Part shown: positions 16,215 to 21,185 of the stretch, piece after piece | Layout: each line of letters opens with the position of its first letter | How positions within the stretch are numbered: position 1 is the stretch's first letter | Virus record (IMG/VR): IMGVR_UViG_3300047487_000176 | Coordinates: 1 to 55,115 of that record | Origin: a virus | Taxonomy: Duplodnaviria; Caudoviricetes | Length of the DNA stretch: 55,115 bases | Direction: 5' to 3' (one strand) | Notes under the pieces: model-generated | Databases searched by the model: none | What the model was told of the DNA's origin: nothing | What the model saw: the letters and a program-made list of their open reading frames with translations, nothing else | Made by a program: the position numbers and the translations under genes

Positions 16215-16427
16215 ATGCCCATCCAACGTGCCTATATCGCGGTGATTTCGTGGATCGACGGCGACGTCGAGGACGCCGATGAACTCAGGGTCTTCGCCGA
16301 ATCGGCCGAACAGGCCAAAACGCTCGCCCGGGAAGTCTGGCTCCGAGCCAAGTCGCCCCGGTGGCCGACGTGCCGGATCACCTCGGTGGAGGCTTTCCCC
16401 CCTGCGAGGCTCTCGACGCTTGCGTGA
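16215..16427 (+). CDS. Hypothetical protein
   Basis: AAAGGAG SD before ATG. Confidence 0.65.
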   Translation: MPIQRAYIAVISWIDGDVEDADELRVFAESAEQAKTLAREVWLRAKSPRWPTCRITSVEAFPPARLSTLA

Positions 16428-16466
16428 TCGGAAGGGTGGTGTCACCCTCCGCAGTGAGGTTGCAAC

Positions 16467-17330
16467 ATGACTCACACTCTCCTGTCTGTACTCCACGATC
16501 TGTACGTGCCGCTCAGGTCGCTCTGCCCAAGAAGCGTCGAGAACTACGAATTCACGATTCGTGCGTTTTCGACGTTTCTTGGGCGAGAGGCGACTCTGGA
16601 CGACCTCGACGAACTGACCGTCGCGAGGTACCTAACCAATCGCGTCAAGGAGCGCGCGATCGCCACGGCCGCGAAGGACCGCGCCCAACTCCGCGCACTC
16701 CACGAGTTCAGCGTTCGCCGCAAACTTTGCGACCACTGGCCTCAGTATCCGCCGATTCGGGTGCCCGACCGCGTGCCGGAGGCGTGGTTCTCCGGCGAGA
16801 TGCAGAGGCTTCTTGACAGTGCTGGTCAAGAGAAGACGGTCCTCGACGGCATCCCCGGCGGCTTGTGGTGGCGGGCGCTCCTGCTTCTGGCCTACGACAC
16901 GGCCGAGCGTGCGACCGCTCTGACGAGCCTCCGCTGGAGGAACGTCAGAGGCTCATCGGTCCTCTTCGTGGCCGAGGACCGCAAGGGCCGTCGCCGCGAC
17001 ATCCTCCGCGAGATCGGCGAAGACACTCTGGCGGCGCTTGAAGCGATCCGTGGCGACCGCGGGCCTGACGACCTCGTCTTCCCGTGGCCTCGGACGAAGA
17101 CGTACCTCTGGCGGCGGCTCGAGATCATCCTCGAGCGAGCCGGCCTGCCTCACGGCCGAAGGGACAAGTTCCACAGAATCCGCCGGACGACCGCGTCCTA
17201 CTACGAGGCCGCCGGCGGCTCGGCGCAGCGGCTTCTTGACCATTCCGACCCGGCGACGACGAGGAAATACATCGACCCGCGGATCGTCAGGCCGCAGGCT
17301 GCGCCGGAACTGATCCCGAGGGTGTCGTGA
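16467..17330 (+). CDS. Tyrosine recombinase / integrase
   Basis: Catalytic R(TAER)-K(RKG)-H..R(HRIRR)-H(LDHS)-Y(RKY) with SAM-like core-binding N-domain; GAGG SD. Confidence 0.88.
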   Translation: MTHTLLSVLHDLYVPLRSLCPRSVENYEFTIRAFSTFLGREATLDDLDELTVARYLTNRVKERAIATAAKDRAQLRALHEFSVRRKLCDHWPQYPPIRVPDRVPEAWFSGEMQRLLDSAGQEKTVLDGIPGGLWWRALLLLAYDTAERATALTSLRWRNVRGSSVLFVAEDRKGRRRDILREIGEDTLAALEAIRGDRGPDDLVFPWPRTKTYLWRRLEIILERAGLPHGRRDKFHRIRRTTASYYEAAGGSAQRLLDHSDPATTRKYIDPRIVRPQAAPELIPRVS

Positions 17331-17545
17331 CCGACATCGTGACACGCCTGCGCCGGTGGACGCACGCCGTGGACGCTGCACCGGCGAGCGACCTGATGGA
17401 CGAGGCGGCGGATGAGATTGAGCGGCTTTTGCGAATCATCAACCGGGCGGCAGGAGACTTGAGCAGGCTTCAGGGCGAGAACCTCCGGCTGCGGTCGCTG
17501 TGCGGGCTGGCGGCGAACCAGCCGATACCGGAGATAATGTCGTGA
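17327..17545 (+). CDS. Small phage protein, DIV.RLR...AADEI family
   Basis: GTGA overlap with recombinase; paralogous to 18105 gene. Confidence 0.65.
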   Translation: MTDIVTRLRRWTHAVDAAPASDLMDEAADEIERLLRIINRAAGDLSRLQGENLRLRSLCGLAANQPIPEIMS

Positions 17546-17592
17546 GTGAGAGCCTGAGAAGAACTGACGCCACACGCACTAGGTAACGCCGC

Positions 17593-17769
17593 ATGAACCT
17601 CGCCGCCGCCGCCGAATTCCAGCAGGAGATCGCCCGCCTCCAAGCGGTCATCGACTCACTACGTCAGGAGGTGCGCGAGCAACGCCGGGAGATCGCCGGC
17701 CTGCGCGAAGAGCGGCGAGCGATACTCGACGCGGATCGACCGAGGGTGGATCAAGCGCTCGGAGGATGA
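17593..17769 (+). CDS. 58-aa coiled-coil protein (below ORF-track cutoff)
   Basis: MNLAAAAEFQQEIARLQAVIDSLRQEV...; AGGT upstream. Confidence 0.55.
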   Translation: MNLAAAAEFQQEIARLQAVIDSLRQEVREQRREIAGLREERRAILDADRPRVDQALGG

Positions 17770-17875
17770 CGCCCATCCCATATGCGAAAACCATCAGTAA
17801 TGAGTGTTTTTCACATACGATTTGGGCGGCCGGAACTAGGTAACTTCACAAAGAATTAGGTAGTAAACTAGGTAA
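17770..17875. repeat. AT-rich imperfect palindrome plus ACTAGGTAA repeats (candidate attP / recombinase-binding region)
   Basis: Inverted repeat 17770-17828; AACTAGGTAA at 17834 and 17866, AATTAGGTAG at 17854, ACTAGGTAA at 17578. Confidence 0.5.
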
Positions 17876-18104
17876 TACCACTCACTTTGCTCGCCGTCAT
17901 ACCGGCTGGACGCCATATCCAGCCAACTGGACGCTGCCCTCATAGTCAGCGGCTGCCGGCGGGCTGCCCCGAGGCGTAACGCGGCCCGACAACGGCTTGG
18001 CGACGAGTGGACCGGGACAGTGGCACAGCGATCCCGGCGGGCAGGCACCGCACCGATAAAGCGGCCAGCCGAACCCGCCGGGGTCGCGTTCTGGAGAGTG
18101 GAAC

Positions 18105-18620
18105 ATGAAAGAATTCGATACACCGCAGCCCATCGACATCGTCATCCGCCTGCGCCAGACGCGGGCCGAAATGATTGGCACTGACGACGAGCAGCACTAC
18201 TGGGACTGCCATGATGCGGCCGACGAGATCGTTTCGCTGCGGGTGTTGCTGAAGCGGCAGAGCGAGGCGGCACATCAAGCAGTCACAATGATGGGCAGGT
18301 ACGCCGAGCGATACGGATTCCTGCTGGGCGGGCTGGAGATGGTTGCCATCGGGCATACGACGGCCGAAAGGGTGTTGAGGTGTGCGAGAGACAAATACCC
18401 GGAAGACCCCGCAAGTACCCCGCAAGTAGCCCGCAGAACGCACAAGAACAGGAGCGGCGAGACATGGACACTGAGAACACGCAAGGCGCGGCCGAGCCGT
18501 CTCCTGCATCCGCTGGTTCTCAGCCGGTGGCGTGGGCTGTCTGGTCGCCATCTTTCGGCTATCCGTTTGGCGATGCGGCAATCTTCAAGCGGAACGAACT
18601 TGCAATCGAAATGTGCGTGA
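18105..18620 (+). CDS. DIV.RLR...AADEI family protein; 3' end runs through an 11-nt tandem repeat into the next gene
   Basis: GGAG upstream of ATG; sequence after about 18405 looks out of frame. Confidence 0.55.
   Translation: MKEFDTPQPIDIVIRLRQTRAEMIGTDDEQHYWDCHDAADEIVSLRVLLKRQSEAAHQAVTMMGRYAERYGFLLGGLEMVAIGHTTAERVLRCARDKYPEDPASTPQVARRTHKNRSGETWTLRTRKARPSRLLHPLVLSRWRGLSGRHLSAIRLAMRQSSSGTNLQSKCA
18433..18522 (-). mobile_element. attC-like recombination site 1
   Basis: Minus strand: TGAGAAC-CAGCG-GAT[G]CAGG-AG-[A]-CGGC...GCCG-CT-CCTGTTC-TTGTGC-GTTCTG; 5/8/7/6 spacing, two extrahelical bases, one mismatch in L box. Confidence 0.72.
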
Positions 18621-18781
18621 TGAATGGGTACGGCGTTGACGACATTGTTCCGCTGTATCGCAAGCCGATGTTGGCAGACGAGGAGTTGAAAGCGATCCGA
18701 AGGGCGAAGGCAGTGGCACGCGAGATGCACGACTCGCGAATAGAGGCTGCGCTGGGTGGCCTACTGGAGCGGCTAGGCTGA
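18464..18781 (+). CDS. Cassette A gene, SQPVAW...GLLERLG family
   Basis: AGGAG SD and ATG inside attC-like 1; TGA inside R box of attC-like 2. Confidence 0.7.
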   Translation: MDTENTQGAAEPSPASAGSQPVAWAVWSPSFGYPFGDAAIFKRNELAIEMCVMNGYGVDDIVPLYRKPMLADEELKAIRRAKAVAREMHDSRIEAALGGLLERLG

Positions 18782-18863
18782 GAACGGCTGCATTGAGCAG
18801 CCCGAGAGGGGACTTTGATATGACGCAGGACGATGCCGGGTCTGCTCCAATGCTTGGTTCTCA
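18779..18863 (-). mobile_element. attC-like recombination site 2
   Basis: Minus strand: TGAGAAC-CAAGC-ATT[G]GAGC-AG-[A]-CCCG...CGGG-CT-GCTCAAT-GCAGCC-GTTCTCA; canonical attC geometry. Confidence 0.8.
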
Positions 18864-19173
18864 GCCGGTGGCGTGGGCTGTTGTGCGCACCGATGGGGAG
18901 TTTGAGTGCGTGCGCGAGTTGGAGGATGAGGCCCGCGAATACGCTGCATGGGTGCGGTCGGAGATGGGCGGGCAATACGACGTTCTGCCACTCTACGCCA
19001 GCGACAGGTGTCCTCACATTCTCGGAAAGACGACGCACTACTGCTCGCTCAACTTCACGCTCACCAATGCGGAGCGGGCGGCGATCAGCGAGGCTTGCGA
19101 CGAGGGGCGATGGTATCCACGCGATTACCACCATATTCGCACGCTGCGCGGGCTGCTGGAACGGCTAGGCTGA
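18820..19173 (+). CDS. Cassette B gene, SQPVAW...GLLERLG family
   Basis: GAGGGG SD and ATG inside loop of attC-like 2; TGA inside TGAGAAC at 19171. Confidence 0.7.
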   Translation: MTQDDAGSAPMLGSQPVAWAVVRTDGEFECVRELEDEAREYAAWVRSEMGGQYDVLPLYASDRCPHILGKTTHYCSLNFTLTNAERAAISEACDEGRWYPRDYHHIRTLRGLLERLG

Positions 19174-19226
19174 GAACTTGTGTTTACACGGTCCGTATAA
19201 CACGCCGCTTCCGTATATCACGCCGC
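19168..19226 (-). mobile_element. attI-like site: lone R box plus two 17-bp direct repeats
   Basis: GGCTGAGAAC with no partner arm; TCCGTATAACACGCCGC (19192-19208) and TCCGTATATCACGCCGC (19210-19226). Confidence 0.5.
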
Positions 19227-19288
19227 CCCACTCATACGCGAAACTCATCGCAAAACGACTGATTGCCAATATGATCGGGGCGTCGCGA

Positions 19289-20204
19289 TCAGACGGCGCA
19301 GCCGCTCGTCGCCCGCCACCACGCCACGGTCTCGGCGATCCCTTCTCGCAGCGTGACCTGCGGCTCCCACCCGAGCACCTTGCGTGCCAGTGAGGCGTCG
19401 ACCGCACGGCGAGGCTGGCCGTCCGGCTTCGAGGAGTCCCAGCGGATCGTGCCGTGATGCTCGCACTCGCCGGCGATCAGTTCGGCGAGGTCTCGCATCG
19501 TCACCTCGCCGCCGCCGCCGAGGTTGACAGGCTCCGGCGTCTCGATGCGTTCGGCGGCACAAAGAATCCCTTCGGCCGCGTCGGCGACGTGCAGAAACTC
19601 GCGGCTGGCACTTCCGGTCCCCCAGAGCGTGACGTCGCCGGCATCGCAGAATCGCCGGATCATGGCTGGGATGACGTGGCTGGACGCCGGGTCGAAATTG
19701 TCCCCGGGGCCGTACAGATTGGTCGGGATCACGACGGCCCCCTCCATCCCGTACTGGGCGTGGTACTGCTTCAGGAGTTCGTAGACGGCCCTCTTCGCCA
19801 CGCCGTACCCGGCGTTCGTCGGCTCTGGGTAGCCGTTCCAGAGGTCTTCCTCCTTGAACGGCACGGGCGGCGAGACGGGGTACGAGCATACCGTCCCGAC
19901 GGCGACCGTGCGGCGGCACTCGTGCAGGCGGGCGGCCTCGACGACGTTCAGGCCCATCGCGAGGTTCGCGTATGTGAACCTGCCCGGCGTCCGCATATTG
20001 GCGCCGATTCCGCCGACCTCCGCGGCCAGATGCAAGACGACGTCCGGCCGGCAGGCTGCGAACAGTCTCGCCGTGGACCGCGGGTCGGTCAGGTCGCACA
20101 CGCGCCGCCGCGGCACGGTGACCTGCGTGCAGCCGCGCTCCTCGAGCAGCCGGCACACGACGCGGCCGAGGAACCCTGCCCCGCCGGTGACCAGCACACG
20201 GCAG

Positions 20205-20227
<23 letters not shown>
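19289..20227 (-). CDS. fcl: GDP-L-fucose synthase
   Basis: [60 protein letters not shown]. Confidence 0.93.

Positions 20228-21185
<958 letters not shown>

Follow-up and report, generated by a model that had tools for sequence, protein, structure and literature searches.

Does a tailed phage keep its small genes as mobile integron cassettes, and if so, which enzyme moves them? This question is raised by positions 18433–19226 of the viral record IMGVR_UViG_3300047487_000176 (Duplodnaviria; Caudoviricetes), in which an initial annotation, made from the letters alone, had noticed an integron-like gene-cassette array. The record is a whole IMG/VR virus of 55,115 bp with an estimated completeness of 97%, and the complete stretch is referred to below as the window. 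Leaving the choice of enzyme aside, the region is very probably an integron-type cassette array that lacks an integron integrase (IntI) of its own and is made up of a cluster of attC sites and an attI-like site. Each cassette, read along the gene strand, would begin with a folded attC and end with NNNNAA. Strand exchange at the step from A to C within the AAC triplet would excise, insert and reorder cassettes, and new ones would enter at the attI-like site located at 19171–19226.

Structure and identity of the two sites

Two imperfect hairpins are found on the + strand at 18433–18522 (site 1) and 18779–18863 (site 2), and both the coordinates and the layout given to these palindromes by the initial annotation turned out to be correct. 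In the 5′ half of each site, a 7-nt box with AAC at its end is separated by 6 nt from the 7-nt L′ box, to which two pairs and a stem of four pairs are added; the 3′ half is made up of the opposite strand of the stem, a T left unpaired, two plus four pairs, an unpaired C, three pairs, 5 nt and GTT followed by 4 nt. In site 2 the 5′ arm reads TGAGAAC (18779–18785), 6 nt, the L′ box ATTGAGC (18792–18798), AG and CCCG; a loop with an ATG at 18820 spans 18805–18836, and the 3′ arm is formed by CGGG, the unpaired T 18841, CT, GCTC, the unpaired C 18848, AAT, 5 nt and GTTCTCA (18857–18863). The L box and the two adjoining pairs of this site are formed completely (9/9). Site 1 is built from GCAGAAC (18433–18439), the L′ box GAACAGG, an ATG at 18464, the unpaired T 18500 and C 18507, and GTTCTCA (18516–18522); it forms eight of nine pairs, with one mismatch in the L box, and has two mismatches in the outer R box. 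Both loops carry a Shine-Dalgarno (SD) sequence together with the ATG, in agreement with the earlier observation that these signals lie inside the sites. The folding energy of site 2 stands out from that of its shuffled versions (z = −2.74 on the + strand and −3.47 on the − strand).

The geometry of attC is outlined in the excerpted text of PMC5027507 (Nivina 2016), according to which the cut in the bottom strand separates A from C in the AAC of R′. The extrahelical bases described there lie on the arm opposite AAC, position 16 being usually G and a conserved T standing at 23 or 24, with a six-pair stem between them and a central spacer of 5–6 nt; the R box consensus is given as RYYYAAC / GTTRRRY. 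Counted from the 3′ end of GTTNNNN, both window sites have unpaired bases at positions 16 and 23 with six pairs in between. The sites are 90 and 85 nt long, which falls within the 57–141 bp known for attC, their central spacers measure 6 and 5 nt, and AAC and GTT triplets close both imperfect hairpins, all as in attC. The spacing and the two extrahelical positions, which had been attributed to integron attC sites at the outset, therefore match the positions reported in that excerpt. Because the unpaired T23 and C16 are situated on the arm opposite AAC, the + strand, i.e., the gene strand, is the bottom-type strand, and the orientation of the genes is antisense to the top strand of attC, as the initial annotation had it.

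That an attC covariance model should recognise both sites was borne out by R1, a model of our own built solely from 52 sites of chromosomal arrays of Planctomycetota. When run on both strands of the whole window, R1 retrieved 18779–18863 with 54.9 bits (E = 3e-13) and 18433–18522 with 43.8 bits (E = 3.9e-10), the next best match in the 55 kb scoring 12.3 bits. With its two attC sites 257 bp apart and no intI gene in the 55-kb record, the locus conforms to the definition of a cluster of attC sites lacking integron integrases (CALIN) used in PMC9892861.

Related sites in viral contigs

When 23 related loci and the window were scanned for this geometry, the gene strand yielded 36 hits and the other strand none, while five shuffles of the sequences yielded 1, 0, 0, 0 and 0 hits. 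A degenerate pattern of the 3′ arm was present in at least 139 stretches of viral contigs. Sufficient upstream sequence was available for 152 distinct matches, and in 126 of these AAC, 6 nt and a complementary 9-mer are correctly placed, the chance of a complementary 5′ arm being approximately 2e-4 per match. The distinct viral sites number 235, all of which contain AAC and GTT, as the scanner demands these triplets; a C stands at position 16 in 234 of them and a T at position 23 in 227.

The stems of these sites differ in sequence and are maintained by compensatory changes. L boxes such as ATTGAGC/GCTC-C-AAT, GATCAGG/CCTG-C-ATC, GATCAGC/GCTG-C-ATC and GATGAAT/ATTC-C-ATC, among others, are compensated, and AT, TA, GC and CG pairs occur at identical positions of the upper stem. 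Covariation that preserves both the stems and the bulges, as expected for genuine attC sites, was thus found in the viral family, with both unpaired bases kept. Mismatches of the G·T (19) and A·C (14) types are about equally rare, which suits DNA whose two strands must both pair more than it suits a fold made by RNA only.

Two site classes can be distinguished. In the long class, the span from AAC to GTT is 77–84 nt and the loop tends to contain the gene start; in the short class, with a span of 41–50 nt, the loop is very small and the start of the gene is situated downstream. Short sites at L017 4722–4780, L010 287–345 and L013 4663–4712, for instance, measure about 50–58 nt with a loop of just 3–4 nt, and retain the boxes as well as the unpaired T and C. 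Since the same cassette is seen with a long or a short site, loops have been gained or lost.

All 131 site-bearing loci have their sites on one strand only, and the arrays reach 15 sites. Near-identical copies of site 2 precede different genes in L006, L008 and L013–L015, so that, with the window included, nearly the same 85-nt site stands ahead of at least three unrelated bodies (L006/L008, L013–L015 and the window). The conservation ends exactly at GTTCTCA, and the following codon specifies Q or H depending on the next letter.

Cassette units and their boundaries

If the crossover is assumed to fall between A and C, two units are delimited on the + strand: cassette A (18439–18784, 346 bp), composed of the interior of site 1, the body of open reading frame (ORF) A and TGAGAA, and cassette B (18785–19176, 392 bp), composed of the interior of site 2, the body of ORF B and TGAGAA. 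The 10-nt ends of both units, GTTCTCAGCC and GGCTGAGAAC, are exactly complementary, which upholds the perfect complementarity ascribed to them by the initial annotation. The same relation holds widely in the viral arrays. The box after site n and the box before site n+1 are complementary at all four variable positions in 98 of 128 distinct cassettes, compared with 44 of 235 for the two boxes within one site, and the mean number of box matches is 3.60 versus 2.34 (sd 0.075) after permutation of the boxes. In total, 18 different complementary box pairs were recorded, e.g., GTTATGC..GCATAAC, GTTCGCC..GGCGAAC and GTTAGCC..GGCTAAC. Such pairing across the body is the signature of a cassette able to circularise and to re-form a paired R box.

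The sample comprised 157 distinct bodies in 147 clusters, eight of which have more than one neighbour. One 280-bp cassette was found in four contexts at approximately 90–99% identity, and all four diverge directly after the terminal AAC, once into the attI-like site. In 14 of 15 pairs of the same cassette the 45 nt following the terminal AAC differ. Comparison of relatives thus placed the breakpoints exactly at AAC, and the gain, loss or shuffling of small genes that had been envisaged for this phage is supported by the box pairing, by the AAC breaks in the four contexts and by the attI-like end. Recombination is presumed to go on still in this phage. A hairpin that travels with the upstream gene was ruled out by the differing 45 nt after AAC and by arrays that end without a hairpin.

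Contigs of four lake/freshwater runs share the sites and the terminal site, and then diverge from the window at the edges. In runs X2 and X5, the summed contig depth is 2–3 times that of the flanks at 18452–18537, 18781–18863 and 19151–19232; the depth is raised there because other contigs from the same lake samples share just these pieces.

The terminal attI-like site

The array closes at 19171–19226 (+) with a conserved element of another kind, and no hairpin was detected after the last TGAGAAC in the fold test. The element is composed of TGAGAAC (19171–19177), TTGT, the imperfect inverted box GTTTACA (19182–19188) and two 17-nt direct repeats (19192–19208 and 19210–19226). A strict pattern of this terminal site returned 20 distinct copies. 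The terminal complementary box could be located in 32 arrays, and 22 of these end in a member of a wider family, delimited by reading the listed tails. The letters to the left of the terminal AAC vary with the cassette, while those to the right are conserved, and the site lies at the end predicted for attI if the + strand is the bottom strand. The attI site located beside intI in a planctomycetotal genome (G011) matches 26 phage terminal 30-mers with a median of 15/30 and a best value of 20/30, the control having a mean of 7.8 and a 99.9th percentile of 16.

Ten of the 32 array ends fall outside the attI-like family (e.g., L019 from 1237, L050, L041, L103, L032 and L095). Three of these run into a further site, one (L047) has a tail of single occurrence, and six carry one of three recurring tails, CATGCAATTGAGCC.., CATGTAATTGACCCC.. 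and MAGAATTAGGC.., which may be other classes of entry sites.

A second copy of the terminal core was sought near distant integrase genes, and the pattern was met in one of five records, solely at the array end; it was too strict for such a search, as variants exist. No conserved recombinase was found downstream of the terminal site. In L010, L080, L085 and L093 the site is followed by a conserved 133-aa gene, which, from its motif alone, we take to be RusA-like (Holliday junction resolvase). Elsewhere HNH, portal- or terminase-like genes follow the terminal site, and the arrays therefore lie at the end of the early region.

Start signals and coding sequence within the sites

In 74 of the 141 phage cassettes, the frame G-GTT is open from the right box to a stop codon no more than 20 nt from the next AAC, and 32 of these 74 stop at the TGA of TGAGAAC. 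As the phage cassettes are read through the right box, each forms a self-contained translation unit with attC in front. ORF A (18464–18781, +, 105 aa) exemplifies this arrangement: its 20 N-terminal residues are encoded by the loop and the 3′ arm of site 1 and its TGA lies within the next R box, just as the initial annotation had read the translation through one arm and the stop in the following box. ORF B (18820–19173, +, 117 aa) occupies the second unit. In this design, the loop of the site supplies the SD and ATG, the 3′ arm encodes the end of a short leader peptide, and the preceding gene has its stop codon inside the R box. With the start signals inside attC, one and the same site would serve both as a recombination site and as a translation start. 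The genes are read away from their attC, unlike those of classical integrons, and towards the attI-like end, whereas in a complete integron the cassette genes are oriented for reading from a promoter at the attI/intI end.

A translational-coupling hairpin acting as RNA only was also considered and rejected as the main explanation; the short sites keep the same unpaired bases without start signals, and G·T mismatches are not favoured over A·C.

Relationship to chromosomal integrons of Planctomycetota

In a collection of one genome per species, the 3′ arm pattern was encountered in 115 stretches, which is about the chance expectation. The genome stretches that pass the geometry test, meanwhile, belong mostly to metagenome-assembled genomes (MAGs) of Planctomycetota, where they form long arrays. 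An IntI (TIGR02249 over the cut-off, 390–466 bits) was detected in four of five genomes searched, these five containing five of the nine loci used for model R1, and in G010 and G011 it adjoins the array on the same contig. In the 52 host sites AAC and GTT are invariant, the pairing of helix 2 amounts to 96.9%, and two-sided changes are seen at 14 of 16 pairs, with a covariation of 0.556 versus 0.152 for shuffled and 0.07–0.09 for slid alignments.

The phage sites are of the same class as the attC of these chromosomal integrons. Hence the array noticed by the initial annotation stands, and the label “integron-like” proved too weak for it. In the available excerpt of PMC8352920 (Ghaly 2021), attC sites are described as conserved within taxa, the Planctomycetes model being at least 98% specific; the same excerpt cautions that attC sites also cluster by environment. 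Of the 157 phage bodies, 45 matched genome loci, all of them on small phage-like MAG contigs.

Candidate enzymes and alternative explanations

No intI gene (TIGR02249) was found in the window, none scored over the cut-off in five phage records including the window (four of which are at least 96% complete), and tblastn with the host IntI gave no hit in 162 viral loci. The window does encode a Xer-like tyrosine recombinase of 287 aa (16467–17330, +), presumed to be the phage integrase. Its best match is XerD (41.5 bits), it does not match TIGR02249 at E 0.01, and only 91 residues separate its two catalytic arginines, compared with 134 in the host IntI. In IntI, the stretch between the catalytic arginines binds the extrahelical bases. 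The recombinase is not an integron integrase. An IntI acting in trans, supplied by a host with a chromosomal integron, is one candidate enzyme, and it appears somewhat the likelier choice, as both the sites and the entry site are similar to those of hosts that carry IntI. In the portion of PMC2095811 that was available, attI is said to be recognised only by its cognate integrase.

Several observations weigh against an integron-type array or against its link to such hosts. The folding energy of site 1, whose 5′ arm is weakened, gives no fold signal (z = +0.84 on the + strand and +0.20 on the − strand), and in the plus-strand folding proposed for both sites only site 2 thus stood out by energy. 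The R boxes GCAGAAC and TGAGAAC with GTTCTCA miss the RYYYAAC / GTTRRRY consensus, a departure of GTTCTCA already pointed out by the initial annotation (some relatives, e.g., GCCTAAC / GTTAGGC, do fit it), and position 16 is C instead of the usual G of attC. The host arrays were found with a phage-derived pattern, so their choice was not blind. The host arrays next to IntI gave no match to any phage cassette body, and shared cassettes were not found; the attI of G010 needs a gap to be aligned with the phage terminal site and has no ungapped likeness to it. The attI-like core of the phages had three matches in 401 Planctomycetota genomes, which is the chance level, and none of the three has sites nearby; because this search for prophages remained at chance level, the host stays inferred. 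Of the 15 same-cassette pairs, 8 also differ in the interior of the upstream site, i.e., body and site are separable at the GTT box, which is unlike simple bottom-strand exchange; this separation could come from exchange of the other strand or from homologous exchange between similar sites. Finally, no recombination event was seen in the contigs of the four lake/freshwater runs. The one joint near a cassette border (18786>19173) is unreliable on account of its 29-letter side with 85% likeness, and joints in general, with sides of 23–43 letters at 85% likeness, are not to be trusted.

The array might instead be an integron look-alike served by the phage recombinase at 16467–17330, with the host IntI uninvolved. 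The distance from the recombinase gene to the array downstream is 1.1 kb, homologues are located within 2.5 kb of arrays in L074, L086, L088/L089 and L043, and a remnant is present in L020. Among the array-bearing records, 29 of 49 encode a Xer-like integrase, as do nine of the ten that are at least 90% complete, a co-occurrence that also speaks against the host enzyme but may reflect only the kinship of temperate phages. The terminal site, moreover, resembles a simple core site with two inverted boxes and 6 bp between the presumed cut positions. On the other hand, the position of the recombinase gene is not fixed: it is found on either side of the array and on either strand, and in G005, G015, G023 and G029 it is 10–40 kb off. 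Record G017, which is 98% complete, has arrays but no recombinase homologue at E 0.001. Together with the short interval between the arginines, the lack of a TIGR02249 match and the likeness of the sites and the terminal site to those of IntI-bearing hosts, this makes the look-alike reading rather unlikely, though a serious rival. It is similarly doubtful, though imaginable, that the phages run their own cassette shuffling on integron-type hairpins by means of a short Xer-like recombinase without the IntI insert; AAC and GTT would then act like exon borders, at which leader peptides coded in the site and protein bodies are re-paired independently, so that not just whole genes but also portions of proteins would be shuffled.

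The separability of body and site also bears on a further explanation, in which the array is a fossil of a host integron whose sites are kept as translation-start or mRNA structures, the mosaic having arisen by homologous recombination between conserved site types. A few site types are near-identical across many phages, and hence 85–90 nt of homology are on offer; the same body with different upstream sites, the partly degraded site 1, the SD and ATG in the loop and the reading through of the right box would all suit such an origin. Homologous exchange, however, leaves unexplained both the 18 complementary box pairs across bodies and the breaks exactly at AAC beside unrelated sequence, including the terminal site. 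Nor would mRNA structures account for the strict retention of both unpaired bases in short sites that lack start signals, or for G·T not being favoured over A·C, and the fossil reading is considered improbable. Much less credible still is the notion of chance palindromes, or of paralogous genes whose ends are conserved only as protein, even though the paralogues ORF A and ORF B have conserved motifs at both termini and site 1 folds no better than its shuffles. The conservation stops at GTTCTCA regardless of whether the next codon letter yields Q or H, compensatory changes extend throughout the stems, model R1, derived from other genomes, matches both sites, and the shuffles gave 0–1 hits compared with 36; this explanation can practically be set aside. 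An integron-type array without its own IntI is thus the preferred reading.

Phage genome and gene neighbourhood

The phage that carries the array is probably temperate. Elsewhere in the window, helicases of the SNF2 and UvrD types and a primase-polymerase are encoded, besides tail-fibre genes and a GDP-sugar gene pair. The array constitutes the end of a short + strand block, in which the recombinase gene (16467) is followed by small ORFs at 17327, 17593 and 18105, ORF A and ORF B; after these come convergent genes of the opposite strand. Relatives of ORF A with 85–90% identity were found at eight loci, and homologues of the body of cassette A occur in other contexts. ORF A and ORF B share 36 identical positions of 120, the only common parts being the N-terminal GSQPVAWAV and the C-terminal GLLERLG. 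Searches of Pfam, PHROGs and NCBIfam gave no match for ORF A, ORF B or ORF 18105, and in a protein atlas the hits of ORF A and ORF B were confined to viral clusters without a name, under 0.9. A blastn search of INPHARED phages with 16400–19300 was likewise negative, no Rfam family was detected in 17700–19400 at E up to 1, and a promoter and terminator consensus scan of 17300–19400 gave 0 and 0.

ORF 18105 (18105–18620, +) is an upstream small gene of the same + strand unit, the frame of which continues through site 1. In L020 (4602–5052), a homologue of its 18105–18420 portion is positioned after the attI-like site and flanked by a 3′ half-site (..GTTCTCA) and TGAGAAC; being bounded by site boxes, it is cassette-like, on the other side of the entry site. 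Immediately 5′ of site 1, an exact 11-nt tandem duplication (ACCCCGCAAGT ×2) occupies 18406–18427. With two copies of ACCCCGCAAGT, ORF 18105 continues out of frame to 18620; one copy would fuse it in frame with ORF A, and three would put the TAG at 18427 in frame. The duplication may mark a slippage site or stem from the assembly. Another repeat, the 10-nt AACTAGGTAA, is present twice, 32 nt apart, in the intergenic 17834–17875 ahead of the + strand block, and could be an operator or promoter element; a sigma-70 scan gave nothing.

Many cassette proteins (window 18464–19173; L006, L009, L017 and L020) have a common C-terminal module and unrelated N-terminal parts. The module consists of L-T-x-A-E-R-E-A-I, about 30 residues, and then L-R-G-L-L-E-R-L-G or -T-K. 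A PVAW...PLY motif is present in several cassette bodies, and others have a motif ending in HWMPLP, which may be that of DUF551.

On the − strand, at 19289–21185, genes for GDP-mannose 4,6-dehydratase and a GDP-fucose-type epimerase/reductase adjoin the tail-fibre genes. The phage may alter a surface sugar of its host or its own.

Significance and comparison with known systems

Integrons are known as bacterial gene-capture devices, and the attC clusters printed for cultured phages amount to a handful. Here, integron cassettes house the small accessory genes of a whole family of uncultured freshwater phages; the site pattern was encountered in at least 139 viral stretches, and the sample comprised 147 cassette types. 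The cassettes are reversed, i.e., the hairpin that precedes the gene gives it the ribosome site, the start codon and the first residues. With an attI-like entry site and no IntI, the phage would rely on a host enzyme or on a simpler Xer-like one, and such dependence permits a direct test of whether integron chemistry needs IntI. If the host IntI acts, the phages and the Planctomycetota-like chromosomal integrons share one cassette pool, which, if true, would be a scarcely charted route of gene flow, possibly for anti-defence genes.

A precedent for the Xer-like enzyme is offered by the CTX phage at dif, where XerCD exchanges a single strand at a site formed by a hairpin, the junction being resolved by replication. 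That system, however, involves a single integration site for the whole phage rather than cassette arrays, and is without extrahelical geometry of the attC kind.

The closest likeness is to the chromosomal integrons of Planctomycetota (G010 and G011), with which the phage sites share the geometry, C16, T23 and, partly, the sequence, the common form being GATCAGC GG CTCGCGA...TCGCGAG T CC GCTG C ATC ..GTT. The cross-cassette complementarity of the boxes is the same as in the phage arrays, and attI lies at the same array end relative to the bottom strand as the phage terminal site. In contrast to these integrons, the phage lacks intI, its cassettes are smaller (mostly 200–350 bp), its loops carry SD and ATG, and its boxes are mostly NNAGAAC. 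The genes of the phage arrays are situated on the bottom-strand side, and 74 of 141 phage cassettes, as opposed to none of 43 host cassettes, are read through the site; in 27 of the latter 43 the longer open frame is on the opposite strand, on which the host cassettes seem to carry their genes.

Clusters of attC in phages have already been published. According to the accessible part of PMC9892861 (Qi et al. 2023), integrons or parts of them occur in 21 of 10,705 phage genomes, 17 being CALINs, and IntI1 recombined five of six tested phage sites with attI1; host enzymes can therefore use phage-borne sites. Those CALINs, like the array of the window, are attC clusters without intI, and in two phages the cassettes have the usual orientation, as opposed to the reversed one found here. 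Start signals or coding sequence within the sites, a conserved attI-like end and a large uncultured family are not described in that part of the paper. A literature search, conducted on result listings rather than full texts, gave no phage cassettes with start signals inside attC, no conserved attI-like end without intI and no Planctomycetota-type phage family. What is new in the present array is the reversed gene orientation, the start signals in the site loop and the coded N-terminus.

The nearest counterpart of the last feature is found among synthetic attC sites (PMC7439510, Nivina et al. 2020). As the excerpt of that work indicates, the function of attC depends on its structure, and a site can therefore sit inside other sequence. 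Those sites were engineered and tested with IntI1, whereas the phage sites are natural and represent a natural case of a coding attC.

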